A DNA stretch of 64,000 nt. Source: a bacterium (GTDB lineage: Bacteria > Patescibacteriota > Microgenomatia > Daviesbacterales > UBA10151). The translations under genes were made by a program, and so were the position numbers. The notes under the pieces were generated by a model. That model was not told the DNA's origin. It did not search any database and saw nothing but the letters and a program-made list of their open reading frames with translations. Position 1 is the first letter of the stretch; every line of letters begins with the position of its first letter. Where the stretch lies: positions 100,160-164,159 of the forward strand of contig JAJYNN010000002.1 in assembly GCA_021786315.1 (NCBI GenBank), in the 5' to 3' direction. Below are positions 37,380 through 57,600 of this stretch, one piece after another.

Positions 37380-37382
37380 TTT

Positions 37383-37957: not shown

Positions 37958-38100
37958 CTCTTTAAGAGACCTCTACTTGCAAAAGTAGAATCAGGATTGG
38001 GGGTAGGAGTGAAAAACTTTGCCGGGGGCTTGATAATTGAGGGCTCACACTAAGTTGTAATATTGTCCCAAAATTCCTCGGCCCTACCCCTCAACTGGTC

Positions 38101-38190: not shown

Positions 38191-38325
38191 CAGGGGATTA
38201 TGGCGGTATTAAAATCCAAACTTCATAGATATCTAGATCAATTCCTTCCTGAAAACGGTTTGGTGAAACAATTCATTTATCTTCTAACTTCAGCACCGGT
38301 AGAATAATTAACCCAGATTTAAGAA

Positions 38326-38393
38326 TTAAGATTTAGGATTTAAGAGGGAATTTTGTGACTCTTAAATCTAGATTCCTAAATCTTAAATCCTTA
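38326..38393. repeat. AT-rich palindromic repeat family, intergenic full hairpin copy
   Basis: atttaagaattaagatttaggatttaagag...ctcttaaatctagattcctaaatcttaaatcc are near-perfect inverted arms. Confidence 0.75.
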
Positions 38394-38611
38394 CGCAACC
38401 CTTACACCGCCAGCCTTGAATCCTTACATTGTGCGACTTGACACGCACCACTTCTTCTGCTAATATTCTCACCGCAACCGTAAAGCTGCAGGTCCGCCAA
38501 TAGGGCGGATTCTTATATTTCCAACGTTTGCATTCTTGGGGTTTTTGCGGGTCTTTTTCTGAAATATCAGAGATCCTGTAACTTCTCTCCGGCAAAAGCC
38601 GGGCAGAACTT

Positions 38612-39913
38612 ATGGATAAACTGCCTTATATTAACCTATCATTCTTAAAAAAGAACGACAAAGTAAAACTATTTCTAGATTCTGCTACTACTTTCTTCTC
38701 GAAATTTTTCAAGAGGGGGGTACCGGTTTTTACCAGTTTAATGGTGATGATGGCTATTACTATTAACGGAATAGGAACACCTTTAATACAAGTTTCGCCT
38801 CTGGTCTCTCCTTTACAGCCCTTAGTGGACCAAAAGAGCCAAAAAGAGGTTTTCGGCTTTGCGCCTTATTGGACCTTTAATAAGTTGGACAAGGTAGATT
38901 TTGATACCCTGACAACTATTGCCTACTTTGGGGTTCCTGTACTCTCGGATGGCACTTTGGATAAAACCGACCAGGGATATATTACTTTTGAGTCCCACCA
39001 GGCCACCCAGCTTTTCCAAAAGGCCCATCAGCACGGAACCAGGGTAGTTTTAACCTTGACCCAGATGAATAACTGGCCGATTCAGGCTATTTTGGATGAC
39101 CCTAATGCTACCCAAAATGTGATAAATCAGGGAGTTGATGCTGTCCAGTCCAGAGGGATTGACGGAATCAATGTTGATTTTGAGTATCAAGGTGACCCTG
39201 GACAAGACTATCGGGATAAATTTACCCATTTTATAGACCAGTTGACCCAGGCAATGCATAAAGCCAACCCTAATGCCAAAGTGACCGTTTCAGTTTATGC
39301 GGCATCTGTCAAAGATCCTAAAATTTATGATGTTGGGGCTTTGGCTAAAGTTTCTGACGGGATCTTTATGATGGCTTATGATTTTGCCAACTCCTCTTCG
39401 GATGTGGCGATGCCGACAGCCCCGCTTTTTGGAGCTTCCGATGGAACTTATTGGTATGACGTATCCACCGCTGTCAACGACTTTTTGCGGGTGATGCCGG
39501 CCAATAAGCTGATTTTGGGGGTACCTTGGTATGGGTATAACTATTCAGTAGGACAACCTCAGGTTAAAGCTTTAACTGGGTGGGGTGGAGGAGTCTCCCA
39601 GCCTTACTCGGTAGCCAAAGATAGCATCCAGCCTGATGCCACCGGTTGGGATAACGAAGGCAAGGTAGGCTGGGAAGCCTACCAAACTTGGGGCGGCTGG
39701 AGGATGATCTTTGTTGAAGATGCCAAATCTTTAGGGTTAAAGTATGACTTTGCCAAGAGCAAAAACCTTGAGGGTATTGGGATTTGGGCTTTGGGATTTG
39801 ATGACGGAAAACCGGAGATGTGGAGTACCTTAAAAAGTAAGTTTACCGGTTTAGTGAAAGACACTGCAGTTTTGGCCAAAGCTATTAAGGAGGTGCCGGA
39901 AAACGACATATGA
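38612..39913 (+). CDS. glycoside hydrolase family 18 (chitinase-like), secreted/membrane-anchored
   Basis: N-terminal TM helix. DGINVDFEY matches the GH18 DxxDxDxE catalytic motif. Confidence 0.65.
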   Translation: MDKLPYINLSFLKKNDKVKLFLDSATTFFSKFFKRGVPVFTSLMVMMAITINGIGTPLIQVSPLVSPLQPLVDQKSQKEVFGFAPYWTFNKLDKVDFDTLTTIAYFGVPVLSDGTLDKTDQGYITFESHQATQLFQKAHQHGTRVVLTLTQMNNWPIQAILDDPNATQNVINQGVDAVQSRGIDGINVDFEYQGDPGQDYRDKFTHFIDQLTQAMHKANPNAKVTVSVYAASVKDPKIYDVGALAKVSDGIFMMAYDFANSSSDVAMPTAPLFGASDGTYWYDVSTAVNDFLRVMPANKLILGVPWYGYNYSVGQPQVKALTGWGGGVSQPYSVAKDSIQPDATGWDNEGKVGWEAYQTWGGWRMIFVEDAKSLGLKYDFAKSKNLEGIGIWALGFDDGKPEMWSTLKSKFTGLVKDTAVLAKAIKEVPENDI

Positions 39914-41046
39914 TTGATGATTTAATCTTAACCTTTAAGACCCGCTGGAAAGTTTTTTTACTCAGTTTAGGGATCCAGCTTTTGATTACCACTTTGCTGC
40001 GGGTAGGGGTGCATGCCCCGAAAATTTTTGATGCTTTACTTCTGTCTAACCTGACCCGTCAGGTACAGACTTTAAGTTCTCCTGTACCGTCCAAACCTGA
40101 TGTTTTTGGAAGTGTGAAGCCAAAGTTGGAGCAAAAAGAGAATACTTTTGAGATTAAAAAAGACACCAGTTGGGCCCCACCTGCCCTGGACCCAGTTCCT
40201 GCCTTGGCTGCAACCGGCGTGAATTTACCTACTGACTACAACCAGGCATCGGGCTTTACAGTCATTGATTTAGACACCGGCAAGGTTTTACTGGAAAAAA
40301 ATGGCGATAAAAAGCTGCCGATTGCGTCGCTTACTAAGATTATGACCGCCGTTGTCGCTTCCGACTTGGCCAATTCTTCGGACACTTTTACTGCCTCCAA
40401 AAAGGCGGCCAATGTCGAGCCGACCCGGATGGGGGTAACTGACGGAGAAAAAGTGGGGCTTAATGAACTATTGCACGCGCTTTTGATGACTTCCGCCAAC
40501 GATAGCGCCCAGATGATTAAAGAGGGGATTGACCAAAAATACGGCAGCGAAATCTTTGTCCGGGCGATGAATGAGAAGGCCAAATTTTTGGGGTTAAAAA
40601 ATACCCATTTTGCCAATCCCCAGGGTTTTGATTCTCCTGATAATTACAGCAGCGCGGATGATCTGGCCGTGCTTTCCCAATATGCCCTGCAAAACTATCC
40701 GGCCATTAAAGATGTTGTCCAGCAGGATTATCAACATTACGATGCCAATACTAACCACCCCCAAATTGACCTCTATAATTGGAATGGGCTTTTAGATGTG
40801 TACCCCGGGGTTTACGGGGTCAAAATCGGCAATACTAACAAGGCTGGGTATACGACAGTAGTTGCCTCTGAACGAAACGGTCATCATCTTTTGACGGTAG
40901 TTTTAGGCGCCCCCGGGGTGTTACAGCGGGATATGTGGGCAGCAGAAGCTTTGGACCAAGGTTTTGCCAAGTATGGCTTGGATCCAGTAAGTGTAACTGA
41001 GGTCCAACTTCAAGCTAAATACGCTACCTGGAAATATTGGAACTAG
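39910..41046 (+). CDS. dacA: D-alanyl-D-alanine carboxypeptidase (peptidase S11 / low-MW PBP)
   Basis: SLTK (SxxK) in ASLTKIMTA. SAND (SxN) in LLMTSANDSAQ. KIGNTNKAG (KTG-like). Confidence 0.75.
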   Translation: MIDDLILTFKTRWKVFLLSLGIQLLITTLLRVGVHAPKIFDALLLSNLTRQVQTLSSPVPSKPDVFGSVKPKLEQKENTFEIKKDTSWAPPALDPVPALAATGVNLPTDYNQASGFTVIDLDTGKVLLEKNGDKKLPIASLTKIMTAVVASDLANSSDTFTASKKAANVEPTRMGVTDGEKVGLNELLHALLMTSANDSAQMIKEGIDQKYGSEIFVRAMNEKAKFLGLKNTHFANPQGFDSPDNYSSADDLAVLSQYALQNYPAIKDVVQQDYQHYDANTNHPQIDLYNWNGLLDVYPGVYGVKIGNTNKAGYTTVVASERNGHHLLTVVLGAPGVLQRDMWAAEALDQGFAKYGLDPVSVTEVQLQAKYATWKYWN

Positions 41047-41810
41047 ATAGGCTGAGGCAGGGGTTGATTTTCATAACCGCTGTAGTCTTTTATTTGGTCT
41101 AACCAGCTGTGCCGGGGGAAGAAGTGCTCCGGGTGAGCTAAATATTCATAAAAAGCATAAGGGCTGCCTTCGTGTGCCGGATAGGGGCTTTGAAATTGAG
41201 AGAAGGCAAAAAGATGGAACCGCTTGCCGGCACCTTCCAGATTAACCTGTAAATTATCCAGCAGACCAGTAAGAACTTTAGGGGACCGGGCATAATAGCT
41301 GACCCGGTGGGTCAAAGACCGGTATTTATTGCGTAAACGGTTAACTAAAGGTTGATTAATCATAATGTTTCCATGGATGGTGGCCAGAACCAACCCTTCC
41401 GGAGTTAGTGTTCGTTCAACTTCCCGGAAAAACTTCTTGGTCTGTTCATCATCCATAAAATCCAAAGTGTGATCCAAAACAATTAAATCCAATGAGCTGT
41501 CGGAAAAAGGGAGCTCCTCCAAACGTCCCTGAACTTTATGATGGGAGGAAAAAGTACCCATTGGTTCGTCATTCATATCCATAAGAATGAGATTATTTTG
41601 GGGATTAGGGTGAAGGTAACGGCAAAAATCAGAAAAACCGGAGGCGGTTCCTGAGAAGGCATGAAACCCCCCCAAAAGAGCATTGATTTTCTCTTTACCT
41701 AAAAAGCCCGGTTGCTGTCTGGTTAAGATATCAACTGCCCACGTATAGGCGAAGCCCTGTTCCCCAAGGCTCACCGGTTGAACAAAACGGTAATATTCCT
41801 GCCATCCCAT
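41043..41810 (-). CDS. class I SAM-dependent methyltransferase (putative)
   Basis: Central ...LDLIVLDHTLDFMDDEQ...PEGLVLATIHG resembles MTase motifs II-IV. Weak call. Confidence 0.4.
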   Translation of the reverse strand: MGWQEYYRFVQPVSLGEQGFAYTWAVDILTRQQPGFLGKEKINALLGGFHAFSGTASGFSDFCRYLHPNPQNNLILMDMNDEPMGTFSSHHKVQGRLEELPFSDSSLDLIVLDHTLDFMDDEQTKKFFREVERTLTPEGLVLATIHGNIMINQPLVNRLRNKYRSLTHRVSYYARSPKVLTGLLDNLQVNLEGAGKRFHLFAFSQFQSPYPAHEGSPYAFYEYLAHPEHFFPRHSWLDQIKDYSGYENQPLPQPI

Positions 41811-41875
41811 AATGGCTGGAATTATACATCATTGAGGGCTTTTAGTCCCGCGGAAGTTTATAGTACTATGAATCT

Positions 41876-42895
41876 ATGCAAGTGGTTTCTGCCCAGCTTG
41901 TTTCCGGCAAAAAAGTTTTAATCAGACTTGATATTGACGTTCCGATCGGAGTGTCGGAGCATCAGAGTGTCAGTGGGTCAGAAAAAGGCAAGTTGGTGGT
42001 TTTGGATGATTTTAGGTTGAAGGCTGGATTAGGTACTTTAAAGTTGTGTTTAGAAAATGCTTCGGAGGTTATAGTGATGGGACATCTTGGCCGGCCGAAA
42101 GGGGAGGACAAAAAACTTTCCGTAGCTCCGATTTATACCTGGCTGGAGAACCAAGGTTTTGCCGGTGACCTGGAAAGCGGAAAGCTGCAGCTTTTGGAAA
42201 ACCTCAGATTTGAGGAAGGGGAAGATAGCTGTGACCTCAATTATGCCAAAGAGTTGGCTGCATTAGGTGAGATATATATAAATGAAGCTTTCGCTGCCCA
42301 CCATCCGGCGGCCTCAACTACAGTTTTGCCGACACTTTTACCCCATGCGGCAGGATTACGCTTTGCTGAGGAAGTGAAGACTTTATCTGAAATCCAGGAC
42401 AACCCCCAAAGGCCGCTCATCGCTGTTGTCGGAGGCGCCAAGATAGAAGACAAATTACCGGCAGTAAGAGTTTTATCTAAAATTGCTGATGTGGTGTTAG
42501 TTGGAGGCAAGATATCCCAGGAGCTGGAAAAAGACCCGGGGATTTTAAAAGAATTAGGGGAGGGGGTAGTCTTGGGCGAGCTGAATAAAGATAAAACGGA
42601 TCTCACCCCTGAAACGATCCAGGTTTGGAAAGAGATTATCCTGCACCATTCAAAATCGGTAATCTGGAACGGCCCTTTGGGGAAAATAGAGGATCCTCAA
42701 AATAACCAAAGCAAGTATCTGGCAGAAGCTATTATCGAATCGGGAGCAAAAAGTGTTGTTGGCGGCGGAGATACTGTATCAGCGCTTGATAAATGGAATC
42801 TTTTGGATAAATTCAATTTTGTTTCAACTGGCGGAGGAGCAATGCTGGAATTTTTAACAGAGGGAACTTTACCTGCAATTGAAGCTCTTTCTTAA
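41876..42895 (+). CDS. pgk: phosphoglycerate kinase (short form, with in-frame repeat insertion near N-terminus)
   Basis: GHLGRPKG, VVGGGDTVSALDKW and STGGGAMLEFLTEG motifs. Confidence 0.85.
   Translation: MQVVSAQLVSGKKVLIRLDIDVPIGVSEHQSVSGSEKGKLVVLDDFRLKAGLGTLKLCLENASEVIVMGHLGRPKGEDKKLSVAPIYTWLENQGFAGDLESGKLQLLENLRFEEGEDSCDLNYAKELAALGEIYINEAFAAHHPAASTTVLPTLLPHAAGLRFAEEVKTLSEIQDNPQRPLIAVVGGAKIEDKLPAVRVLSKIADVVLVGGKISQELEKDPGILKELGEGVVLGELNKDKTDLTPETIQVWKEIILHHSKSVIWNGPLGKIEDPQNNQSKYLAEAIIESGAKSVVGGGDTVSALDKWNLLDKFNFVSTGGGAMLEFLTEGTLPAIEALS
41947..41988. repeat. GC-rich repeat (core GAGTGTCRG) copy inside pgk, in frame
   Basis: cggagtgtcggagcatcagagtgtcagtgggtcagaaaaa encodes GVSEHQSVSGSEK, which is absent from canonical PGK N-termini. 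Confidence 0.65.
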
Positions 42896-42935
42896 ATTGA
42901 CATCTCCCCAAAATCCATCTAATCTGGATATATCG

Positions 42936-45200
42936 ATGCAAAGATATTCCGAACGCGGTGTTGCCCATATTTTTGCCTTAATTCTGCTTCTTGTAGGAAT
43001 TGCTGTCGGGGTTTACCTGATACAAAACCCGCAGTTCCTCAATTCCTTTGCCGGTAATCCTCCGATTGTTATTAAAGGGGCGGATGGCAGCCAGCTGTCT
43101 CCAAACAAGGACGGTGTTCCCTCGACCGCTTCCACAAAAATTGTGGTGGAACTTAACTCTCCTCTGGGGCCGGCGGGGGTAAAAACTGATACTACTTTAC
43201 AGGCATCTCCGTCACCTACAGTCAATTATTCATTAACTGGTCTGAAGAAAGCTTATGGCGCCAAAAGAGGCCAGCCCAAATATGACCCCCAATACGATTT
43301 AAATAATGACGGAGTGATCAATATCATCGATTTTGCCCTCTTAATTCCCAAGCTTCAAAGCAAGCCGGAACCAAAAACCAAACCCCAAACGACGACGGTT
43401 TCTTACAGGCTGACCGAGGATGCCTTAAATATTAATCAGCTGCCGTTTGTTCCCTATACCGCTGATCCGATGGTGGTAAATTACGAATTCAGGGATAAAA
43501 AACCGGGCAAAAAGTTTATCTGGGTGGATTTCCAGGATTCCAAAGGCAAGATCCAGCGCCGCTCAACTCCGGTAGAAATTACCGCTCCGGCAGTGCCGGC
43601 ATCGGCTTGCGGAGCCGACCTTTCCTATACCTGTACTTCTTCCGGAAACCGTCTGACTGTCAACTGGAGCTTAAAAAATAAATACGGAGGCAATAGCTGT
43701 AATATTTTTCTTAAGGACAGCAGGGGGGACCATCAGATAAACGGCTCAAACTATGCCGGCCCTTGTTCGGGGTCGTGGTCGGACACTTCCCTAGACGGCA
43801 GAACCGTCAGTATCGGGGATCGCTACCAGCTTTTCGTCAGCAACGGTGACCCTGCCGGAGGGTGTTACAACCAGCAAAAAGGGGACACCACCTTGGTTTG
43901 TGTGACCCCCACCGCCACCCCAACCCCAATTCCGACTGCCGTCCCCGATCAAGGCGGTTTTGAGGTAGGGCTGGAGGCGGGTGAGCAACACGACACCAGC
44001 CGGGTCAACCTGGTGGCCGAGAGCGGAGCTAAGTGGGTGAGATTGAATTTTGTGGGCTCGAATTGGGCAGCCGGTTCTTCCGACGTCAATACTTACAACA
44101 ACATTATTAATGCCTACCGCAATAAAAATATTAAGATTATTGGCTTAATTGGTATTCAATCGGTTTCGGGGGGGTATGACAGGAACCATCCGGAAAACTT
44201 CACCCAAAAGTTTACTGATACGGCTTCTGATATTGTGGCCCGCTTTGGGGACAGGGTAAAAGTTTATGAACTATTTAACGAGCCGAATGATTGGGCCGGG
44301 GGATCGAGTTCCCAGGTTCCGGAAAAGTACTTTGCCACTTATCTTGCCAGCATTTACCAAAGGATTAAAATTGACCAGGGGAGAGGGGACATTTTCCTAA
44401 ACTCCGGGCCGCTTTTTTCCTTTGATTTAAACAACGGCTCCAGCTATCTGCAAAATACCTACAATGAAGGTAAAAACTTGAGTGGTTCCTTAAACTGGAA
44501 TACTATCAAGTCTAAGACCGGGAGCTATCCTTTGGATGGGGTAGGTTACCATATCTACGTGGCCCAGGGTGGTGGAGACCAATCCCAGGTTGAGACTAAA
44601 GTTAAAGCAAACCTGGATTCCATTAAGAGTGTCTTAAACCGGGTGGATAGCGGCAAAAAGATGTGGATTACCGAATTTGGGTGGGGAACAGGATTAGGGG
44701 GCATGAATGAAACTATTCAGGCTTCGAACCTAGAAAAGGCTTATTCTGTCTTTAAAAACTACCCGGCGGTAAGAATGGCGATGTGGTTTACCCTCCAGGA
44801 TTTTGACGGCAGTAAGTGGGGCCTCGTAAAAGGTGACGGCGGGAAAAAATCGGCCTGGTACGCTTTCCAGAGAGCGGGAAGCAACACCAATACGTGTTCG
44901 GCCAGCATAGATTATAGCTGTAGCGTTTCAGATAATAAGTTAAATGTCAGCTGGAACTTAACTAACAAATATGGAGGTAATAGCTGTAATATCTATATCA
45001 AGGATAACCGGGGGGATCATCAGATAAACGGCTCAAACTACAGCGGGCCGTGTTCCGGCAGCTGGTCAAGCAATACTTTGGACGGCAGCGCAGTTTCTGG
45101 AGGCGGGCGTTACCAGCTTTTTGTCAGCAACGGCGACCCTTCAGGCGGGTGCTATAATCAACCCAGAGGAGATGTTACTTTAAATTGTAACTACCAATAG
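42936..45200 (+). CDS. secreted glycoside hydrolase (GH5-like) with dockerin-like motif and duplicated Cys-rich flanking modules
   Basis: TM/signal segment HIFALILLLVGIAVGVYL. Dockerin-like DLNNDGVINIIDFALLI. Catalytic-type YELFNEPN and WITEFGWG motifs. Two copies of about 100 aa reading C..SY.C...N.L.V.W.L.NKYGGNSCNI..KD.RGDHQINGSNY.GPCSGSW. Confidence 0.55.
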   Translation: MQRYSERGVAHIFALILLLVGIAVGVYLIQNPQFLNSFAGNPPIVIKGADGSQLSPNKDGVPSTASTKIVVELNSPLGPAGVKTDTTLQASPSPTVNYSLTGLKKAYGAKRGQPKYDPQYDLNNDGVINIIDFALLIPKLQSKPEPKTKPQTTTVSYRLTEDALNINQLPFVPYTADPMVVNYEFRDKKPGKKFIWVDFQDSKGKIQRRSTPVEITAPAVPASACGADLSYTCTSSGNRLTVNWSLKNKYGGNSCNIFLKDSRGDHQINGSNYAGPCSGSWSDTSLDGRTVSIGDRYQLFVSNGDPAGGCYNQQKGDTTLVCVTPTATPTPIPTAVPDQGGFEVGLEAGEQHDTSRVNLVAESGAKWVRLNFVGSNWAAGSSDVNTYNNIINAYRNKNIKIIGLIGIQSVSGGYDRNHPENFTQKFTDTASDIVARFGDRVKVYELFNEPNDWAGGSSSQVPEKYFATYLASIYQRIKIDQGRGDIFLNSGPLFSFDLNNGSSYLQNTYNEGKNLSGSLNWNTIKSKTGSYPLDGVGYHIYVAQGGGDQSQVETKVKANLDSIKSVLNRVDSGKKMWITEFGWGTGLGGMNETIQASNLEKAYSVFKNYPAVRMAMWFTLQDFDGSKWGLVKGDGGKKSAWYAFQRAGSNTNTCSASIDYSCSVSDNKLNVSWNLTNKYGGNSCNIYIKDNRGDHQINGSNYSGPCSGSWSSNTLDGSAVSGGGRYQLFVSNGDPSGGCYNQPRGDVTLNCNYQ

Positions 45201-45201
45201 T

Positions 45202-45795
45202 ATGAGTTTGGTGGAAACTAATATTTACCTCTTTGTCATGGCCACGGTTCTGGCCGTCTTGGAGATCCAGATAGAAGGGGAACACGGCTGGGCGAAAAAT
45301 TTGCCTACCTGGAGGCCGAAAAACCCCACCTGGTACTCAAAAACCTACCAGAGAGTTATGAGCGGGAAAGAGATGACCGGGTATCACCTTTCCATGTTTG
45401 GCTTTGTACTTCTAATCCTTTGTTTGCCCTTTGTTTTTGGGCTGCCCCTAACGCTGGGGAATGCCTTAAGGATTGCTATCTTTTACTTCCTGTTTTCGGC
45501 GATGTGGGACTTTTTGTGGTTTGTCTTAAACCCTTATTATCCATTGAAAAAGTTTAAGGCTGAGTACCTTTCCTTTCACCACAAAAGCTGGCTTTTAGGC
45601 GTACCCACTGACTATTGGGGAGCCTTAATTCTGACTTTAATCCTCTCGGTACTTGGCCAATTTGTTTTGCATATGCCCAATTTGGTAGCCTGGTGGGGGA
45701 CAAACGTAGCTTTATTCCTATTCCAGGTATTCTTGATGATCCTCTTTTCTTTATATGTTTTAAAGATTGATAATTGGCATCCCTCTAAAAAATAA
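45202..45795 (+). CDS. hypothetical membrane protein
   Basis: 197 aa with 4-5 TM segments. Confidence 0.4.
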   Translation: MSLVETNIYLFVMATVLAVLEIQIEGEHGWAKNLPTWRPKNPTWYSKTYQRVMSGKEMTGYHLSMFGFVLLILCLPFVFGLPLTLGNALRIAIFYFLFSAMWDFLWFVLNPYYPLKKFKAEYLSFHHKSWLLGVPTDYWGALILTLILSVLGQFVLHMPNLVAWWGTNVALFLFQVFLMILFSLYVLKIDNWHPSKK

Positions 45796-46068
45796 GACTC
45801 TTTATTTGATTTCCCCTAGAGGTTGTGGTACTACATGCATATGACTGTTGAAAGTAGAGAGAATCATACATCTGAGGATACATCCAGTGATGAACATTTA
45901 AAACTAGGAATGGAGCTGTTGGGGTTAATTACTGCGGCTACTATTATAGCCGGATTATTAGGCAGTAGTGATGATGGGGCTGTAAGTGCTGTAAGACAAT
46001 ATTTCTTTGATAATTTATCCCGAATATTTCATTGACATCACTGCATTGTGCAAGTTACGATAGGTTTA

Positions 46069-47124
46069 ATGCTCAAAGTTGCCATTAATGGCTTTGGCCG
46101 GATTGGCCGGGCCGCCTTTAAGATTGCTTTAGAAAAGTTTCCCCAGGAGGTTGAAGTTGTGGCCATCAACGATTTAACCGATCCTCACATTTTAGCCCAT
46201 CTTCTCCAATTCGACAGCGCCTTTGGCCGCTGGGATAAAGAGGTTTTTGCAGACGATAATTCCATTACAGTTGATGGTAAACAATACCCAATATTTGCTG
46301 AAAAGGTCCCTGCAAACATCCGATGGGGCGATATAGGGGCGGAAATTGTCATTGAAAGTACCGGGAAATTTGTCGACGAGGAGGGGATGAAACAGCATCT
46401 TTTAGGGGGAGCAAAGAAGGTGGTTCTTTCTGCGCCTTGCAAGACCGGCAATGTTCCAACTTATATTATTGGAGTTAACCACTTCCGCTACCAGGGTGAA
46501 CCGCTAATTAATAACGGATCCTGTACCACCAACTGTGTGGCCCCGATTGCCGCCATTATGGATGAAAAGTTTGGGGTTTTAAAGGCTTTGATGACCACTA
46601 CCCATGCAGTCACGGCGGAACAAAACTTGGTTGACGGCCCGCCTCCGGGAGGCAAATCTCAGGATCTCCGCCGGGCCCGGGCAGCCTATACCAACATTAT
46701 TCCCACTACCACCGGGGCGGCGGTGGCTACCACTGAAGCTATCCCGACTTTAAAAGGACTTTTTGATGGCCGGGCCTTAAGGGTTCCGGTAATTGACGGC
46801 TCGATTACTGACTTTACTTTCCTGGTAAAAAAGAAAACCACAGTTGAGGAAGTTAATCAGGCCTTTAAAGATGCGGCGGGGGGAGAGAGGTGGCAGGGGA
46901 TTATTACCTGGAGTGACGATTCGTTAGTCTCCTCGGATATTATCGGCAAAAGTGAGTCGGCCATAGTTGATTTGCCTTTAACCCAGGTAGTTGACGGGGA
47001 CTTAATCAAGATTTTGGCTTGGTATGACAACGAATGGGGCTATTCCAACAGGCTAGTGGAACAGGTAATAAATATTGGGAAGGTTAAAGATACTCCATTA
47101 TCAGCTCCAGCCACTCCTGATTGA
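46069..47124 (+). CDS. gap: glyceraldehyde-3-phosphate dehydrogenase
   Basis: MLKVAINGFGRIGR, active-site SCTTNCVAP and WYDNEWGYS. Start set at the second Met; the longer ORF begins at 46048. Confidence 0.9.
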   Translation: MLKVAINGFGRIGRAAFKIALEKFPQEVEVVAINDLTDPHILAHLLQFDSAFGRWDKEVFADDNSITVDGKQYPIFAEKVPANIRWGDIGAEIVIESTGKFVDEEGMKQHLLGGAKKVVLSAPCKTGNVPTYIIGVNHFRYQGEPLINNGSCTTNCVAPIAAIMDEKFGVLKALMTTTHAVTAEQNLVDGPPPGGKSQDLRRARAAYTNIIPTTTGAAVATTEAIPTLKGLFDGRALRVPVIDGSITDFTFLVKKKTTVEEVNQAFKDAAGGERWQGIITWSDDSLVSSDIIGKSESAIVDLPLTQVVDGDLIKILAWYDNEWGYSNRLVEQVINIGKVKDTPLSAPATPD

Positions 47125-47149
47125 CAATCCGAGCTCACTTTGATAAACT
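47121..47149 (+). promoter_or_regulatory. candidate promoter TTGACA-17-TAAACT upstream of tRNA-Ala/23S
   Basis: -35 at 47121-47126 and a weak -10 at 47144-47149. Confidence 0.35.
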
Positions 47150-47303
47150 TGGCTTCTAGTGAGCAGATCACTTTTAATGAGAAGCAACGCACTTACATCT
47201 TAAAACCCTTGCGCTAAGGTCTTCCGAGGTAGCGAGGAAGCCAAGACCTTTAGCGTTGTATCCCTCAATTACTTACATTTAAATAGTTTTGGACAGGAGC
47301 GAC

Positions 47304-47376
47304 GGGCCCGTAGTTCACCCGGTAGAACGCATCATTTGCAATGATGAGGTAAGCGGTTCGAGTCCGCTCGGGTCCA
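47304..47376 (+). tRNA. tRNA-Ala (anticodon TGC)
   Basis: GGGCCCG/CGGGTCC acceptor (one G-U), anticodon loop TTTGCAA, T-loop TTCGAGT. No encoded CCA. Confidence 0.8.
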
Positions 47377-47486
47377 CAGGTGAAACGGAGTTTCACAGAG
47401 TCTAGACTCTAGAATCTAGAGACTAGTCACTGTGAGCCTCTGGCTCACATTTGCACTTTGAAATGTGAATACGATGTATGAAGGCC

Positions 47487-47566
47487 AAATTCGAATTAAG
47501 AATTAGGAATTATGAATGATGAATGAAAATTCTGAATTCTAAATTCTACATTCTAAATTCATGAAA
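47487..47566. repeat. AT-rich palindromic repeat family, hairpin copy between tRNA-Ala and 23S
   Basis: gaattaagaattaggaattatgaatgatgaatg...cattctaaattctacattctaaattcatg. Confidence 0.7.
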
Positions 47567-48072
47567 TAGCCAAAAGATACTCAACAAAAAGGCATACGGT
47601 GAATGCCTTGGTCGAAAGTACCGATGAAGGACGTACTAGGCGACGATACTCTGCGAGGAGCTGCCAAGAAGCTTTGATCCGCAGGTTTCCGAATGGAGCA
47701 ATCCACTCTGGTTAATCCCAGAGGACCCATAAGTAAATACATAGCTTATGGGAGGGCACGCGCTGAACTGAAACATCTAAGTAAGCGCAGGAAGAGAAAT
47801 CAATTAGAGATTCCCCCAGTAGCGGCGAGCGAAAAGGGAAGAGCCCAAACCACGCATCACCTTAGGCAGCAATGCTTAAGACGCGTGGGGTTGTAGGACT
47901 GACAGTAGCGAGTAGCGAGGATAGCTGAAGACTCTGGAAAGAGTTGCCAAAGAGGGTGATAGCCCTGTAAGCGAAATCCAAACTGCCGTGGTCAGATTCC
48001 TGAGTACCCTAGGACACGTGTAATCCTGGGTGAATCTACGTCGACCATGACGTAAGGCTAAATATACTTTCG

Positions 48073-48112
<40 letters not shown>

Positions 48113-48845
48113 AAGAGCGGAACGCTCAGTGAAATAGTACCTGAAACCGTATGTTGACAAGCTGTGGAACTCGCGATTTATCGCGAGAACCGCGTGCCTA
48201 TTGAAGAATGAGCCGGTGAGTTACTTTGCATTCCAAGTTTAAGTGCCGTAAGGCGCGAAGGCGTAGTGAAAGCGAGCCTGAATGAGCGAAAGCTCCTGTC
48301 TTTGACAGTAGGGCGTTTAGGAGTGCACAGTAGACCCGAAACCGTGTGAGCTATCCATGTCCAGGGTGAACTTCTGCGAAAGCAGGAGGGAGGCCCGAAC
48401 CCGTTACTGTAGCAATAGTTTGGGATGAGATGTGGTTAGAGGTGATATGCCTAACGAACACGGAGATAGCTGGTTCTCCCCGAAATATATCTAGGTATAG
48501 CCCTGTGCAAGTTTGTAGGGGGTAGAGCTCTGGCTGGAACTAGGTGGCGCAAGCTATCTATTCCAATCAAACTTCAAATACTTACAAACGTAGCAGGAGT
48601 CAGTCCGATCCGGCTAAGCGGAGCGGGCTCGAGGGAAACATCCCGAACCGACAGTTAAGGTCCCTAAATACAGACTAAGTGTTAAAGGATGTAAAGTTCC
48701 TTAGACAGCCAGGAAGTTGGCTTAGAAGCAGCCATCTTTTAAAGAAAGCGTAACAGCTCGCTGGTCTACTACGGAATTTTGCGCCGACAATGAATCGGGG
48801 CTCAAGTCTGTTACCGAAACTACGGGTGCTTGTCCGTTGGACAAG

Positions 48846-48963
48846 AATTTTCAAGTACCAATTACCAATTTACAATGAATTTTCAATGACCAAATGTTTT
48901 AAACATTTGAAAATTTAGACATTGAGATTTGTTTGAAAATTGAAAATTGAAAATTGGAATTTC
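48846..48963. repeat. AT-rich repeat insertion within 23S rRNA (between ...GTCCGTTGGACAAG and TCGTCCTTCGGACGAG...)
   Basis: gaaaattgaaaattgaaaattgg repeats plus the palindrome caaatgttttaaacatttg interrupt an otherwise conserved 23S helix. Confidence 0.6.
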
Positions 48964-49794
48964 TCGTCCTTCGGACGAGTGCGGTAGGGGAGCGTTCTGG
49001 AGGGAGTGAAGCTCATGGTGTAAACCAGGGTGGACCGTCCAGAAGTGAGAATGCCGGTATGAGTAACGAAATTCCAGTGAGAAACTGGAACACCGAAAGC
49101 CCAAGGTTTCCGATCCAATGTTAATCAGGGTCGGGTTAATCGGCACCTAAGACGAGGCCAGATGGCGTAGTCGATGGAAGACCCGTCAAAATTCGGGTAT
49201 TAGGCTTTTCTGATAAAAACTTTACGGGTGGACAAAGTGGGAATAACCCAGTCCTCTATATGGGGATTTAAGCAACGAATTAGTGGGTGTAGGAAAATCC
49301 GCACCAGCTTTCCAAGAACGACTTAAGTCACTTATGTGGCTTAAGCTATCTTAAGTGATTTATCGTTTAAGGGAGCTAATCACGTTTGAAGTGAGTTGCG
49401 ACGACGTAAGTGGGTGATTTTCTGTTTTCAGGAAAAGACTCGTAAAGGAGAAAAGTTATAGCCGTACCATAAACCGACACAGGTGGGCGAGTTGAGTATA
49501 CACAGGTGATCGAGAGAACTATCCTTAAGGAACTCGGCAATACAGCTGGACGTAAGTTAGCAAGATGTCCCGCCCTAGACCGCAAGGTTGTGGGGTTGCA
49601 ACAAAAGACGCTGAGCGACTGTTTAACAAAAACACAGGTCCGTGCCAAAGCGAAAGCTGATGTATACGGGCTGACACCTGCCCAGTGCCAGTAATTTAAA
49701 ACTGTCTTTGACTCCTTGGAGCAATCCTTGGACGAGGAGGTGGTCTAAGATCTGGTGAACGGCAGCAGTAACTATAACTGTTCTATGGTAAGAT

Positions 49795-50443
49795 TCGTTG
49801 CCTTAGAAGGTGGTGTGTTTTGGATAATTCTGCTATATGCTGGAAAATCTGAGAATCCGGTGCTACTATGGTGTAATCTTCCCATAGATATGCCGAGTAA
49901 CAATGTATCCGGTGCAGAAAATCAGCAGGAAAGACTTAAGATTTGTGGCTGGATAGTTGGTTTTACTGATGGGGAAGGGTGTTTTTCCGTTTCCATCTTT
50001 AAAAACAGGACAACCAAGAGCGGATTTCAGGTAATGCCTGAATTTGTGATTACCCAAGGTCAAAAAAGTTTGAGCTCCTTAGAGCTTGTTAAAAACTTCT
50101 TTGGTTGTGGCGCTATTTATGTAAATAGACGCCACGATAATCACACGGAGAATATCTACCGCTATTGCGTCCGTTCAATTAAAGATTTGCAGGAGAAAAT
50201 AATACCTTTTTTCAAAGAAAATCAGCTAAGAACCAGCAAAAAAGAGGACTTTAACTTATTTTGTAGGGCAGTGGAGATGGTTTTAAATCGTCAACACTTA
50301 ACCGCAGAAGGTTTAAAGATTCTTCAAGATCTTAAGAATCCTCAGAAACCACACGCAGAACCCTGAAATTTCAGGGAAGATATGGTTCGAACTATGTGGC
50401 GACACATAGGATTTAGATCAAAGGAAGTCTAATAATAAAATGT
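49795..50443 (+). mobile_element. group-I-type intron in 23S rRNA (inserted in the GGTAAG|GCGAAATTCC region, E. coli ~1917-1931 equivalent). Boundaries are approximate.
   Basis: Exon sequence GTAACTATAACTGTTCTATGGTAAG resumes at GCGAAATTCCTTGTC after about 650 nt that contain a LAGLIDADG ORF. Confidence 0.6.
49890..50366 (+). CDS. LAGLIDADG homing endonuclease (intron-encoded)
   Basis: ICGWIVGFTDGEGCFSVSI matches the LAGLIDADG motif, with a second half-motif LVKNFFGCGAIYVN. Start set at the internal Met because the upstream part of the ORF is 23S exon. Confidence 0.65.
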   Translation: MPSNNVSGAENQQERLKICGWIVGFTDGEGCFSVSIFKNRTTKSGFQVMPEFVITQGQKSLSSLELVKNFFGCGAIYVNRRHDNHTENIYRYCVRSIKDLQEKIIPFFKENQLRTSKKEDFNLFCRAVEMVLNRQHLTAEGLKILQDLKNPQKPHAEP

Positions 50444-50914
50444 TGAGCGAAATTCCTTGTCTGGTGAGTTCAGACCCGCACGAAAGGTAGAACGACTTAG
50501 CGACTGTCTTGAGGATAGACTCGGTGAAATTGCAGTGGCTGTGAAGATGCGGCCTTCCCATACTTGGACAAAAAGACCCCGTGGAGCTTTACTGCAGCTT
50601 GGCCCTGATTTGAAAACTTAACTGTGTAGTGTAGGAGGGAGATTCGTCGTCAATGAAACACCTCTCTTTTAAGTTTTTAAGTCTCAACCTTAGCCATAAA
50701 CTGGCAAGGCGACAAGGTCTGGCGGGCAGTTTAACTGGGACGGTTTCCTCCAAAAACGTAACGGAGGAGTACAAAGGTGCACTTAGATCGGATGGCAATC
50801 GATCGTAAAGCGTAAAAGTAAAGAGTGCGCTTGACTGTGAGACCTACAAGTCGAGCAGGTGCGAAAGCAGGTTTTAGTGATCCCTACTTACCTCATGGGA
50901 GGGAGTAGGCTTAT

Positions 50915-50948
<34 letters not shown>

Positions 50949-51223
50949 GATACCCAACAGTCCACAAGGACGGTATCGTTCGGCACCTCGATGTCGGCTC
51001 ATCGCAGCGTGGGGCTGTAGAAGGTCCCAAGCGTCTGGCTGTTCGCCAGTTAAAGCGGTACGCGAGCTGGGTTCAAACCGTCGTAAGACAGGTTGGACTC
51101 TATCCAGTATGGGCGTTTGAAACTTGAGGGGAGTTATCTTTAGTACGAGAGGACCGAGATGAGGAAACCTCTAGTGTGCCAGTTGTCCCAAAAGGGCAGC
51201 GCTGGGTAGCTACGTTTCTTTAT

Positions 51224-51254
<31 letters not shown>

Positions 51255-51424
51255 AGACCCCAAGATTAGGTTTCTTTATTAGACCCCTGGAAGACTACCA
51301 GGTTGATAGGTTGCCGGTGTAAGCATAGCAATGTGTTTAGCCTAGCAATACTAATGGTCAAAGTTGAGATTTTTTGGCTTGAAGCCTTTAGAAGTCGTAT
51401 TCACATTTTGAAGTAGCAAAGAAA

Positions 51425-51447
51425 AGCACCCCGTAAGGGGTGTTTTT
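51425..51447 (+). terminator. rho-independent terminator after 23S
   Basis: gcaccccgtaaggggtg followed by tttttt. Confidence 0.6.
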
Positions 51448-51477
51448 TGTGCCTAAAACAAAGAAAAGGTATGGTTT

Positions 51478-51683: not shown

Positions 51684-52262
51684 ATGTCTGCTCGAAACCG
51701 TGGTTTTACTCTGATAAGTCTACTTTTGCGACGCAAAAGATCTTGTCAAGGTTTCACCTTGATTGAACTCTTAGTTGTTATTTGTATTGTGGCAATCCTT
51801 GGTACCGTTGCTTTATTGGTTTATACCAATACTTTAAAAAGTGCCAGAATGGCAAAGAGAATTGGGGATTTGCAAAGTATTAATACGGCAATTGAATTGT
51901 ACCGGGATGAGAACAATCATTACCCAATTGCTACTAATTGGCGCTCTGAGTGTGCCAAAGGTGGTAATTTAAACCCCGATGATGTTGTCCCCGGATTAGT
52001 CCCTAAATATACCCGGATATTTCCTTCTGATCCCTTAATGGTTAAAAACACCAACTCTTCCTGTTATATGTATATCTCCAATGAAGATGGATCGGGATAT
52101 AAACTTTTGGATTATCAAATCAGTGAATTTACCCCCGCTGATTACTTAAAGGAGAGGGGGCTAATAGATCCGGCCCGGGATGGGGGATCGGATCCCTGCA
52201 AGGTGGACGGAGATTCACCGGAGGCCTGGGGTTTTTATACCTATAATGCCTGTGCCCTTTAA
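51684..52262 (+). CDS. type IV pilin / pseudopilin-like protein (prepilin N-terminal domain)
   Basis: QGFTLIELLVVICIVAILG matches the class III signal G|FTLIE. An upstream partial duplicate GFTLISLLL is present. Confidence 0.6.
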   Translation: MSARNRGFTLISLLLRRKRSCQGFTLIELLVVICIVAILGTVALLVYTNTLKSARMAKRIGDLQSINTAIELYRDENNHYPIATNWRSECAKGGNLNPDDVVPGLVPKYTRIFPSDPLMVKNTNSSCYMYISNEDGSGYKLLDYQISEFTPADYLKERGLIDPARDGGSDPCKVDGDSPEAWGFYTYNACAL

Positions 52263-52312
52263 AAGATTTAAGAATCTTAAATCTGCATTCCTAAATCTTA
52301 AATCTAGCTTAT
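52262..52312. repeat. AT-rich palindromic repeat family, half copy
   Basis: cttaaatctgcattcctaaatcttaaatctagc is nearly identical to the right arm of the 38326-38393 copy. Confidence 0.7.
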
Positions 52313-52375: not shown

Positions 52376-52493
52376 GTCCGGTGATTTGAGCGGTGCGGAA
52401 CCACCCTTTCCCATTCCGAACAGGGTCGTGAAACACACCAGCGCAGACGATACTAGGGTCGAAAGGCCTCGGGACAATATGTCATTGCCGGGA
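52376..52493 (+). rRNA. rrf: 5S ribosomal RNA (3' boundary uncertain; a duplicated 3'-end segment follows)
   Basis: TGTCCGGTGATTTGAGCGGTGCGGAACCACCC...CCCATTCCGAACAGGGTCGTGAAAC aligns with the bacterial 5S 5' half. GTCATTGCCGGGA occurs at 52481 and again at 52569. Confidence 0.5.
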
Positions 52494-52631: not shown

Positions 52632-52739
52632 TATAAGCAGAGCTTGAAATCTTTGCTTCTCAAAAATTATAAGCAGAGCTTGAAATCTTTGCTTCTCAAA
52701 AATTATAAGCAGAGCTTGAAATCTTTGCTTCTCAAAAAT
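52632..52739. repeat. perfect tandem repeat, 36 bp x 3
   Basis: tataagcagagcttgaaatctttgcttctcaaaaat repeated three times with no spacers. Not CRISPR-like. Confidence 0.9.
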
Positions 52740-52740
52740 T

Positions 52741-53082
52741 ATGGAAGACTTGCCCAAAACATCCCTAGAATGTAATAAACTTGCCCCCAATATTGCCAGG
52801 GTGGTAAAACAGGTAGAAACAGCAACCATCTCCTTGGCTGAGCTTGCCCAAAAAGAAGGGGTCGATATGGGTGTTTTGGTAAAAATCTGGGCCAATTTGC
52901 CCCTGGATGAATCCCAGGGTATGACCTATCTGGAAATGGCTGGACAATGTATCCTGGAAGTTTCCGGAGCAGTCGATAAAGCTTTTCCCGGCCTATCTTA
53001 TGAGGAAAAGATCATTAAGAAATTTGAGCTGATGGCCGGGCTGCTCCTTTTAAAAGCTGAGCAGGTGAAACAAATCCGCTAG
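52741..53082 (+). CDS. hypothetical protein
   Basis: 113-aa ORF starting immediately after the tandem repeat. Confidence 0.35.
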   Translation: MEDLPKTSLECNKLAPNIARVVKQVETATISLAELAQKEGVDMGVLVKIWANLPLDESQGMTYLEMAGQCILEVSGAVDKAFPGLSYEEKIIKKFELMAGLLLLKAEQVKQIR

Positions 53083-54647: not shown

Positions 54648-54682
54648 ATTTTATAACTTAAAATTTAAAATTTAGATTTATC
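54648..54682. repeat. AT-rich repeat, inverted partner of 54243-54275
   Basis: cttaaaatttaaaatttagatttatc. Confidence 0.55.
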
Positions 54683-57600
54683 ATGGTTTACTGTCCACGA
54701 TCCACCAGTCGAAGGTGATGTCCTGGGCTTGGGCCTGGTTAAGCTGGACTGTAAATGACTGGCCAACACTCTTGGAGGAAACACCCAGGGTTACCGGCTG
54801 GTGGGGGGTGAGGAAGATCCTGGAAGTGGCGGTAACCTGGTCGGTATTTACAATCAGGGTTGTTTGTCCGGCAGGGATAGTGGCAGTGGACAAAGTTTGG
54901 GAGGAGACCTCTACTTTTTGAACACTTATCTTACCCGTATTGTCGATTTGGGCTTTCCCATTGAAGAAATCAACCAGCGTTGCCAACGGTGAATTCTGGA
55001 TAAACAAGGCGCCGATGGAGTTGACGGAGTTGCCGGTCAAAGACATTGTTCCGTCAACTGTGAAATCGCCGGCAATAGTGGTGCTGGCCAAAGAGGTAGT
55101 ACCCAAAGATTTGAAGGTATCGGAGATTGTCGCCTGGTAGGCGGTCAGTTGTCCGGAGATTGTTGCCTCGGAAGCCACTGAAAGGTTAGCCAAAACAGCG
55201 GAACCGGTGGCCAGCAGCACATCCGGGGAGGTCAGCTTTAAGTTATCGACATCGGATTGGACTTTGGCCAATTGGGCGGAAGTTGAGGCCAGCTGAGCGG
55301 AGTTGGAAGCCAACTGGGCAGAAGTGGAAGCAATTTGGGCCGAGGAGGAAGCAATTTGGGCTGATAACACATCCGCTTGGGCTTGAACCGCGGCCAGTTG
55401 GGTATCAATGGTCTTTAAGGTGGAAGCTACCTCAATATAGTTGGTTCCTGCCTGGTACTGGATGGCGGAAGTGGAGGCAACCGGCTGGCCGGAAGCAGTT
55501 AAGCCTGAGGAATCCAGGGAGTTGTCGGCCACCTTAAGTTCGCCTGAAATGGTCGCTTCACTGGTGACTGCAATCTGGTCTACCTTAAGAGACGGGGTTT
55601 GCAGTGACCCATTGGTATTGACACTTAAGTTGAAGCTGGAGACTTGGGCCACGTAGCTGTTAATCTCATCCTGTTGTTCTTTAACTGAATTAATAAGCCC
55701 AAAAGTCAAGGCTCCGTAGTTTACCTCTTTCACCTGGGTTAGAGTTGTATCGGTCGGATAAAGTTGTACCTCCCTGGTGCTTACAAGTTGGGGCGCCACC
55801 TGTTCTACCTGCTGGGCAATAAGACCTGATTTGATATTCCCGTCGTCAAGCGTTCCCCCAAGGCCGTTGTATTGGAAAGTTACGGGGTTGAGGCCGAGTA
55901 TTTCTTTCAGGCCGAGGTTAACGGGATTAATGTTCTTTTTCAGCCTGATATCAGATAAACAGGCTCCTAATGTCCCGCCGTTGTAAGTAAGGCATCCCTG
56001 GATGGATCCATTTCCTGCAGAATCTACGATAAACCGATTTGTGCCGTTTATTTGCATGATAATTTGTCCGCTGGCATTTCCATTGGCTATATACCAAAGA
56101 CTTCTTTCTGTTCCAATGCCGGCACCGTTTACCCTGGTTTCACCCTGAGAGTCATGGACAACAAGCGGCGCTACTGCATTCGGCATTGTTGTTCCGATAT
56201 AAACATTTCCGGAGGCATAAGCATTTCCGCTGACGTTAAGGCCGGCGGAATTTACTACGCCATTCTTTTGTACTGTGAACGGGTAAGAGTTCCAGGCGGC
56301 GTTACCGAGGGTAATGGCGTTATACGTTGGATTAGTGTCATTGCCGGGCTGGATGCGGATAATATCTGTTCCGGTGTTGTTGTAGGCATAAAGGGATGTT
56401 GCCCTGGCTGTTCCGGCTACATCTAGTGCAGTTCCCGGAGTTCCTACTCCGATACCTACACCTCCTGTGCCGCCACTGGTTTGGAGTAACAAATAGCCTG
56501 CACCTTTTGAATCAAGCATAAGGTTATTGGTTGCATTGGTACCACTCTCATAAATATGGTTATATCCAATGTTTACTGATTGGGTTGAATTAAGGGGCAG
56601 GACTGATAAGTAAGCTTCAGTCCCATTAGTTGGGCTTTGAATTGTCAGTACTGATCCCGGATTGGTAGTCCCAATACCCACATTACCTGAGTTTTTGAAT
56701 GTTACCTTATCTGACCACCCTCCGCCATCTGTACGGATTGCGACGTCATTGCCGTTACCCAGTATTTTTGTTACTCCACCTTCTATACCAAATTGAGCAT
56801 ACTTAGTTGCATTATTAGAATCATGTAACCGGATCCAGTTATCTCCAGTAAAGGACAAATCTAGTTTGTAGCCTGGACTAGTTGTCCCGATACCCACATT
56901 GCCCCCGGCAGCTATTGTCATCTTGATTGAATCATTGGTTCCGATATTGACAGGGTGGTTGCTGTAAGTCCAAAGATTCATGGCTCCTGGGCCCAGTCCG
57001 TCAGTACCGCCGTTAAGAGACAGGTATCCATTAATTGTGCCGGTGGTACTATAGAGGTGCATTTGCGAGTACTGGCTGGTTGGACCCTGGACATAAATGG
57101 CATCGTTTGAATCCACAGATGACCGGGTTGTTCCTCCAAACATAGCAAGTCCGTTAACATTAAATTTGACCAGAGGGCTCGTTGTTCCAATACCCACATT
57201 CCCGGTAAAGTAGGAGTTGCCACTGCCGCTAACAGCCAGTGTCCCGCCGACGGTTAAATTACCGGAGTTAGATAGGGACATAATCGCGTTATCCAGATTT
57301 CCGGCTGTCCCATCCACCCAGCGGAAGCCTGCGCTGGAAGTTTCACCGCTGACAAATGATAACCAGTCAGCCCTGTTGCTGTATACACCTATAAATGGTG
57401 TGCCCCAACTGGAAGTGGGGAATTTGATATAGTTCAGGTTATCAACCCTGATATTCCCATTAACTTCCAGCTTCTCTCCAGGACTGGTTGTCCCAATACC
57501 CACATTGCCAGCAAATGAGCTGCTGCCTGACCCTTGAACTGTAAGTGTACCAAGTAAAGTTGCATTTCCTTGAGTTCCGGCATTGTAATCAGTGCTGACA

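Follow-up and report, generated by a model that had tools for sequence, protein, structure and literature searches.

The DNA analysed here, a stretch of 64,000 nt that we refer to as the window, carries a split rRNA operon. A short 16S rRNA gene of 1455 nt (34884-36338) is followed by genes for tRNA-Cys (37037-37109, minus strand) and tRNA-Ile (37383-37457). About 10 kb of protein genes then lie between tRNA-Ile and tRNA-Ala (47304-47377), encoding a GH18 protein, an S11 peptidase, a methyltransferase, PGK, a 773-aa ORF and GAPDH. The 23S rRNA gene comes after tRNA-Ala, and the split between 16S and 23S spans 36338-47576. The PGK ORF (41876-42895) encodes 339 aa, and its best Pfam match reaches only from position 6 to position 220 of a 379-position profile; the ORF is followed by the overlapping 773-aa ORF.

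The 23S rRNA gene occupies 47576-51374 on the plus strand and matches Rfam RF02541 over its full length with 2317 bits. It is 3799 nt long, as against 2925 positions in the Rfam LSU model, and is 66.6% identical to E. coli rrlB in a pairwise alignment. Besides the AT-rich insert in helix 45 that is the subject of this work, the gene carries an insertion of 656 nt (49790-50445) after E. coli position 1931. An ORF at 49755-50366 encodes a LAGLIDADG_1 homing endonuclease (Pfam, 5e-26), which has hundreds of homologues in 23S genes of the Candidate Phyla Radiation (CPR). No group I intron was matched by Rfam in this insertion, even at E <= 1. In addition, a domain-III helix is extended by 65-72 nt after E. 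coli 1502-1522 (49304-49388). This extension is a strong hairpin, CTTAAGTCACTTA.../...TAAGTGATTTA, which is not AT-poor and lies outside the sequence family described below. Helix 25 of the gene is plain.

Downstream of the 23S gene there is a terminator-like hairpin, GCACCCCGTAAGGGGTG, with a T run (51426-51448). A pilin-like gene with an N-terminal methylation motif (51684-52262) lies between the 23S gene and the 5S gene (52377-52493). The same order of 23S, pilin-like gene and, further downstream, a ribosomal protein S1 gene is found in a related locus (L024), where four other ORFs separate the pilin-like gene from the S1 gene. Between the 5S and S1 genes of the window, a perfect 36-nt tandem repeat of TATAAGCAGAGCTTGAAATCTTTGCTTCTCAAAAAT is present in 3.1 copies that are 100% identical (52632-52742). 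A CRISPR array was considered here and rejected, since there are no spacers. On the minus strand, an ORF of 3021 aa (54681-63746) contains a conserved motif of 39-54 nt, GGnCTnGTTGTCCCAATACCCACATTnCC, in about 20 copies at intervals of 200-500 nt; the ORF probably encodes a large repetitive surface protein.

The closest 23S sequence to that of the window comes from a Ca. Daviesbacteria metagenome-assembled genome (L015), at about 77-89% identity per BLAST segment. The best homologue of ribosomal protein S1 is 58% identical, and the next-best named match (56%) is labelled Ca. Daviesbacteria. On these comparisons, we place the host, an uncultured ultra-small bacterium, in the Microgenomates group of the CPR/Patescibacteria, without a close relative in the collections. 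The universal primer sites of the 16S gene are altered, reading GTGCCAGAAGCCTCGGTAA in the 515F region and ATTAGAGACCTGCGTAGTCC in the 806R region, and the organism would be missed by standard amplicon surveys. Arrays of 7-nt units, often intergenic and in inverted pairs, are known in cyanobacteria as STRR-type repeats, and the heptamers of the window had suggested a cyanobacterial host. We rejected this, as the CYA359 signature is absent, the 16S primer sites are CPR-like and the nearest 23S is that of Ca. Daviesbacteria. The resemblance to STRR is one of periodicity only: the host is not cyanobacterial and there is no sequence relationship.

The helix-45 insert and its fold

The flank GGGTGCTTGTCCGTTGGACAAG stops at 48845, an AT-rich stretch occupies 48846-48963, and TCGTCCTTCGGACGAGTGCGGTAGGGGAGCGTTCTGG follows. 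In the Rfam LSU alignment, about 135 extra bases are inserted into the loop of the helix formed by model positions 1206-1226, directly upstream of the universal GGUAGGGGAGCGUUC. In the pairwise alignment to E. coli rrlB, these bases fall within helix 45, after E. coli 1167 and 1181. The GC content is 0.22 in the insert, compared with 0.49 in the 23S core, and the insert is without an ORF. A preliminary description of this DNA had claimed an AT-rich insert of about 118 nt at the tip of a 23S helix and had named alignment to the Rfam LSU model as a check. The letters are as it quoted them, the Rfam and E. coli alignments agree, and the former confirms the insertion in the helix loop. The components that it listed are also present, namely GAAAATTGAAAATTGAAAATTGG at 48935-48957 and the palindrome CAAATGTTTTAAACATTTG at 48891-48909.

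The bounds of the insert are wider than had been described. The AT-rich interval 48846-48963 stands as given, while the 17-nt GC-rich hairpins at its flanks, previously called 23S blocks, belong to the element. This is because a profile derived solely from the five capped copies of other genomes has a full-length, plus-strand match at exactly 48829-48979, with E = 5.1e-11. The element, hereafter the cassette, is thus 151 nt long including both flanking hairpins. Judging from the alignments, it has taken the place of nearly the whole of the original helix 45, of which about 3 bp (GUG/UGC) are left.

The cassette opens with a 7-bp hairpin closed by a triloop, CTTGTCC-GTT-GGACAAG (48829-48845, plus strand), which is a conserved terminus. 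Its pairs are preserved across copies with compensatory CG<->GC changes. The interior (48846-48963, plus strand, 118 nt, 22% GC) is a long imperfect stem by composition and fold. Its 5' arm (48852-48889) has a 7-nt periodicity, with CAATTAC x2.7 and AATTTACAATG x2.1 reported by TRF, and pairs with the 3' arm in both the inverted-repeat search and the minimum free energy (MFE) fold. At the tip of the hairpin is the apical palindrome CAAATGTTT-T-AAACATTTG (48891-48909), the terminal stem in the MFE fold. The 3' arm contains a perfect heptamer array, (TTGAAAA) x3.4, with 100% matches in TRF (48933-48956). Since the homologous stretch in a related cassette (L043) is an imperfect period-7 run, the TTGAAAA array looks like local homogenisation or slippage. 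A second conserved 7-bp hairpin with a triloop, CTCGTCC-TTC-GGACGAG (48963-48979, plus strand), closes the cassette. It is 100% paired in four copies, with two compensatory pairs. Each terminus is palindromic, and the two also form an inverted repeat with one another.

The insert and its flanks fold as one long imperfect hairpin with an MFE of -56.1 kcal/mol. The 200 dinucleotide shuffles gave -30.7 +/- 3.8 (z = -6.6), and none of them was as stable. When the cassette is folded in isolation, two predicted forms emerge. One is a single rod of about 55 bp, and the other has a small cap hairpin on either side of a long AT-rich hairpin. Every capped copy folded alone yields a rod of 47-65 pairs. 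For the termini in four sequences, a model of two local hairpins has 98% of cells paired and five compensatory cells, whereas a continuous rod has 89% paired and an invariant A.C mismatch. The covariation thus slightly favours local cap hairpins over the continuous rod, in a set of four sequences that cannot decide between them. The sense orientation, i.e., the rRNA strand, folds better than the antisense in all six capped copies, by 5.5-21.8 kcal/mol, which indicates selection on the RNA. G.U pairs are more numerous in the sense orientation for five of these six; the window copy has three per orientation. A search of the cassette against Rfam at permissive thresholds gave only matches to generic long hairpins (miRNA precursors), far below their thresholds, and no intron or other RNA family.

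Could the insert be an assembly artefact or a chimera of the metagenome-assembled genome? Logan short-read contigs with proteins identical to those of the window do end at or before the 23S gene: L001 reaches 57 nt into it, and L005 has only the gene downstream of 23S. This fits such an artefact, which we nevertheless regard as hardly credible, since colinear 23S sequence borders the insert on both sides in the Rfam alignment and homologous cassettes occupy the same site in independent assemblies (the three records L044, L045 and L046).

A cassette family in rRNA operons

The 23S loci used for comparison came from two flank-pattern scans, from the neighbours of homologues of the LAGLIDADG protein of the 1931 insertion and from the neighbours of S1 genes. 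The S1-neighbour contigs end before the rRNA, and the 5'-flank scans of genome and metagenome contigs returned only distant taxa (Acidobacteria, a MAG labelled Armatimonadia and Daviesbacteria). Measured from anchor to anchor, the span across helix 45 is 161 nt in the window. It is 25 nt in the Daviesbacteria loci, 32 nt in L024 and 38 nt in L021, and it is short and without an insert in L023 and L040. Loci L025-L027 have an AT-rich hairpin of 99 nt, which is unrelated to that of the window (alignment z = 0.6). L043 has about 140 nt that are clearly similar.

The distribution of the insert is sporadic. In domain III of 23S, the Daviesbacteria loci are 80% and L024 is 77% identical to the window, and both are without the insert. 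Homologous inserts occur in L043 (67%) and L044, hosts that are only 64-67% identical. Because near relatives are free of the insert and distant ones have a homologue, it is not a lineage-wide expansion segment, and its distribution departs from the rRNA phylogeny. The preliminary description had reasoned that unrelated inserts at this site in all relatives would point to a generic expansion segment. What we find is different: there is no insert in most relatives, an unrelated one in a single relative and a homologous one in each of two.

The family was defined from L043 and L044 by a 5' terminus, CTTGnnCGnnGnACAAG-AA, and a 3' terminus, TTT-CTCGnnnTTCGnACGAG, around an AT-rich inverted repeat. 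The window cassette has both termini, as found by regular expression and by profile at both ends, with leave-one-out terminus HMMs giving E = 4e-5 for the 5' end and E = 1.1e-4 for the 3' end. The 5' ends of the helix-45 inserts read GCTTGTCCGTTGGACAAGAAT in the window and GCTTGTGCGTTGCACAAGAAT in L043, and the 3' ends read ATTTCTCGTCCTTCGGACGAG and ATTCTCGCGCAGCGCGTGAG, respectively. The interiors of these two inserts are 57% identical (z = 3.5), a score that none of 1000 shuffles reached.

Three hosts with seven copies, six capped and one uncapped, form the basis of the family. A search of the fetched loci for the terminus pattern gave three matches in L043 alone, all of them in a single 23S gene. 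There the cassettes lie in the variable hairpin near E. coli 272-292 (1725-1887; hereafter Ec280), in helix 25 at E. coli 543 (2188-2338) and in helix 45 (2996-3126). To our knowledge, the helix-25 and helix-45 intervening sequences (IVSs) of enterobacteria are unrelated to each other. The third host is from groundwater and is represented by three different records, L044, L045 and L046, in which the helix-45 cassette is the same. In L044, one capped copy is in helix 45 (1831-1991) and another begins 8 nt past the 23S 3' end (4757-4875), while an uncapped copy of the AT-rich interior (4097-4192) sits in an intron-like insertion near E. coli 2500. The 3' hairpin motif also closes the L043 and L044 copies, and the 19-mer CTTGTCCGTTGGACAAGAA at the 5' terminus of the window cassette is identical to the start of the helix-25 copy of L043.

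The relationships among the copies are not those of their hosts. The best match of the window copy is the helix-25 copy of L043 (66%), followed by the helix-45 copy of L043 (61%). For the helix-45 copy of L044, the identity is 76% to the Ec280 copy of L043, 68% to the L043 helix-25 copy and only 57% to the L043 helix-45 copy. By comparison, the host 23S identity is 0.76 between L043 and L044 and 0.64-0.66 between the window and either. Judged by these identities, the copies group neither by site nor by host, a pattern that indicates movement between sites and between lineages.

We considered whether the flanking 17-nt hairpins are a duplicated helix-45 tip, i.e., a target-site duplication, and rejected this. 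The same hairpins flank the copies at helix 25, at Ec280 and in the trailer, and the native helix-25 tip of a relative (L023), TCCCGATTTATCGGGA, is unrelated to them. We therefore assign the GC-rich hairpins to the cassette itself and not to a duplication of its target. No direct repeat flanks the six capped copies; the flanks pair as the host helix instead. There is no transposase among the window ORFs scanned, and neither cassette terminus had a match in viral contigs.

In principle, helix 45 could have lengthened in place by replication slippage of heptamers, with no transfer of sequence. The perfect TTGAAAA array in the 3' arm and the heptamer arrays that are common in this genome are what such growth would leave behind. 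Slippage, however, accounts for local homogenisation of one arm only. Homologues of the whole cassette, both terminal hairpins included, occur at other sites and in hosts with 64-67% identical 23S, and closer relatives are without it. Convergence of the termini from a helix-45 context is also opposed by the copies at helix 25, at Ec280 and in the trailer. We consider growth in place very improbable.

Heptamer arrays and the question of a wider repeat

The preliminary description had assigned the insert to a repeat family and held that the same element invades protein genes. Membership of a repeat family is right; the family is a different one, specific to rRNA operons and seen in other CPR genomes. 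The claim of invasion is not supported, as the termini and the palindrome occur only at helix 45 within the 64-kb window.

The corresponding explanation is a genome-wide mobile palindromic repeat of MITE or RPE type, which also enters protein genes and for which rRNA is one landing site. It draws on the abundance of AT-rich 7-nt arrays, the predominant kind of tandem repeat in the window (25 of 58 TRF rows), on the inverted array pairs in the rRNA spacers, and on the inverted-repeat termini of the cassette. The best other match to the insert in the window also lies in an ORF (19964-20021; 45 of 58 nt; 48 bits versus at most 31 for shuffles). However, this match is AAAATT-type low-complexity sequence that encodes a Lys/Ile/Phe-rich loop, KIKKFFENLKFKI, of a DUF2298 membrane protein. 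Compared with the Pfam profiles, the ORFs for PolA, DNA ligase and Fpg are not lengthened by the heptamer arrays that they contain. The profile search found no capped copy in the window ORFs and no other significant match anywhere in the 64 kb, the next distinct locus having E = 0.74. All seven family copies found are within rRNA operons, and the target-site duplications and transposase expected of a mobile repeat of this kind were not found in the searches described above. We regard this explanation as improbable. What the cassette shares with other loci is style only, namely AT-rich arms, 7-nt periodicity and inverted pairs.

Like MITEs, REP/BIME, Correia elements and Rickettsia palindromic elements, the cassette is small, non-coding, multicopy and patchy, and has terminal inverted repeats and a hairpin fold. 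MITEs are dispersed through a genome in many copies and mobilised by a transposase in trans. The window, the only part of this genome considered here, has one cassette copy in 64 kb. Unlike these elements, the cassette has no target-site duplication, was not seen outside rRNA operons or in-frame in proteins, and folds with a strand asymmetry that points to selection on RNA. It is best read as a mobile family specific to rRNA operons, as far as the copies at hand indicate.

Two spacers of the rRNA operon contain AT-rich hairpins made of inverted heptamer arrays (GAATTAA/AAATTCT and AGATTTA/TAAATCT), at 47487-47570 and 38316-38389; the former lies directly 5' of the 23S gene. These hairpins may be processing or terminator stems in the same style as the cassette arms. 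The stretch 38352-38389 is 87% identical to 52267-52304, within a related AT-rich stretch that spans 52267-52305. The rRNA loci of L043, L044, L025, L040 and L023 also have many heptamer arrays, which are rare in the Daviesbacteria loci. A literature search on heptamer hairpins in Patescibacteria found nothing relevant. The window also has octamer arrays resembling GTGTCAGA, in the 5' part of the PGK ORF (41946-41986) and in a RecF-like ORF (7980-8011).

Fate and origin of the insert

Bacterial IVSs are extended stem-loops at the tips of helices 9, 25 or 45 that RNase III removes without religation (PMC4990558). The insert described here lies in the loop of helix 45, forms an extended stem-loop, is distributed sporadically and has no match to a self-splicing intron. 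Its location, its architecture, the lack of a ribozyme or ORF and its patchy distribution match the bacterial IVS class. We suggest, with a probability of roughly 0.6, that the feature is an IVS cassette of the RNase III type in the 23S rRNA of a CPR bacterium, where it replaces the tip of helix 45.

The closest parallels are the helix-45 IVSs of Salmonella, Yersinia, Campylobacter and Helicobacter, which are about 90-180 nt long, have no ORF and are excised by RNase III (PMC4990558; see also PMC2801512). As in those genera, an AT-rich stem-loop of similar length replaces the helix tip at the same site (E. coli ~1170), is without an ORF and occurs sporadically among relatives. In contrast, this cassette has conserved GC-rich palindromic caps and arms with a 7-nt periodicity, and its sister copies are found at helix 25, in the ~280 hairpin, in an intron-like insertion and in the 23S trailer. 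Excision is established for the IVSs of the four genera and would be expected by analogy for the cassette. The IVSs of Coxiella burnetii and Leptospira also lie in helix 45 and have terminal inverted repeats, which form the cleaved stem there. They are much longer than the cassette (about 430-760 nt) and encode S23p/IVP-type ORFs, and horizontal acquisition has been proposed for them (PMC4990558).

Within the CPR, rRNA insertions in general are often intron-like and protein-coding and are removed from transcripts, according to Tsurumaki et al. 2024 (PMC11270868). The same paper reports many short non-intron inserts in CPR 23S at IVS-equivalent sites, which are probably of the same IVS type; those named 23IS2 and 23IS4 are under 200-250 bp, and their sites are equated with known IVS sites. 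The insert resembles these in the following respects: it is in a CPR host, is shorter than 250 bp, has no ORF and no Rfam intron match or other intron similarity, and lies at a known IVS site. The likeness to 23IS4 follows that account's wording of an IVS-equivalent site, as distinct from a numeric 23IS4 coordinate. A short IVS-like insert at the helix-45 site in CPR is thus already in the literature. Unlike the accessible text of that account, the present work describes sequence families, conserved termini, and cross-site and spacer copies.

The preliminary description had named two fates for the insert, excision as an IVS or retention as an expansion segment, and these are the right alternatives. 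Excision by RNase III is the most likely fate, at somewhat better than even odds by analogy with known IVSs. In this scheme, the cassette would be transcribed within the pre-23S rRNA, and RNase III would cut its long double-stranded stem, the AT-rich interior being the presumed substrate, and leave the ends unjoined. The mature 23S would then be divided into two fragments, of about 1.27 kb and about 1.75 kb, that are held together in the ribosome; these sizes assume removal of the separate 1931 insertion. More speculatively, the GC-rich terminal segments may remain as a short clamp resembling helix 45. Alternatively, the terminal segments might fold back as hairpins and shield the newly made 3' and 5' ends from exonucleases as caps, a speculation that we raise because these hairpins are conserved. 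In L044, the trailer copy that begins 8 nt past the 23S 3' end lies where the RNase III processing stems of pre-rRNA normally sit. No RNase III gene (rnc) is present within the 64-kb window, which is uninformative for a genome of about 0.94 Mb.

Retention would mean that the cassette escapes cleavage and extends helix 45 at the surface of the mature 23S, in the form of a rod or of a junction of three hairpins. Such a structured junction could indeed be a sign of retention, and an extension is physically possible because insertions are tolerated at the solvent-exposed tip of this helix. The local cap hairpins are preserved by compensatory changes, as expected for a structured RNA element, and the better folding of the sense strand would fit any role at the RNA level. 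On the other hand, an expansion segment is conserved across the lineage that carries it, whereas the nearest relatives of the host have a short helix 45 and the cassette is patchy across hosts. All of the characterised bacterial helix-45 inserts of this size named in PMC4990558 are excised by RNase III. Furthermore, the interior is an AT-rich duplex without conserved sequence, with 57% identity between helix-45 copies, and a sister copy in a transcribed spacer cannot be mature rRNA. We therefore consider retention unlikely, though it is the main competitor of the excision that we favour.

The origin and spread of bacterial IVSs have been debated since 1990, with a transposon remnant and a mobile element among the hypotheses (PMC4990558). 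We tentatively propose a further step beyond the assignment to the IVS class, which is possible but which we would not yet bet on. The cassette might be a self-contained mobile module for cutting and capping RNA, in which the GC-rich palindromic clamps and the AT-rich heptamer duplex make up a portable RNase III site and the stable hairpins cap the cut ends. Such a module would hop, at the DNA or the RNA level, between the hairpin tips of highly transcribed structured RNAs, and would spread between distant CPR lineages. Its landing sites would comprise helices 25 and 45 of 23S, the ~280 hairpin, an intron loop and the 23S 3' trailer. If this is true, IVSs and the processing stems of pre-rRNA spacers are interchangeable members of one element family, and bacterial IVSs have a concrete origin.

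Taken alone, the feature in the window is one more helix-45 IVS in a clade rich in insertions, and is ordinary in kind. Its interest is that the insert, far from being loose AT-rich filler, is a cassette of 151 nt with definite bounds and with palindromic caps that are conserved, and that near-identical termini and arms recur in other CPR genomes at other helices, in an intron-like insertion and past the 23S 3' end, independently of host phylogeny and site. As far as the accessible texts go, the bounded capped cassette, its recurrence at several helices, its intron-like and trailer copies and its incongruence with host phylogeny are new, on the basis of three hosts and seven copies. Recognisable ends and a position in spacer processing make the origin of IVSs searchable across genomes and testable by RNase III assays. 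Cassettes of this kind also make CPR 23S genes longer and probably fragmented, and short-read assemblies break at the rRNA operon because of them.

Other AT-rich hairpins occupy comparable places in the related loci. One equivalent spot, within the insertion near E. coli 2500, holds different heptamer-array hairpins in L044 (4097-4192; (AAGTTAA)n/(TTTTGCA)n), L043 (5225-5310; (CTAGAAA)n) and L025 (5215-5345; (TAGTGAG)n/(CTACAAC)n). By sequence, heptamer-array modules appear to be exchanged where hairpins of structured RNAs have their tips. In CPR, IVSs recur at helix 25 as well as at helix 45. At the helix-25 sites of L044 (1088-1205) and L025 (about 2350-2450) there are other AT-rich hairpin inserts, with GC-rich bases and different sequences.
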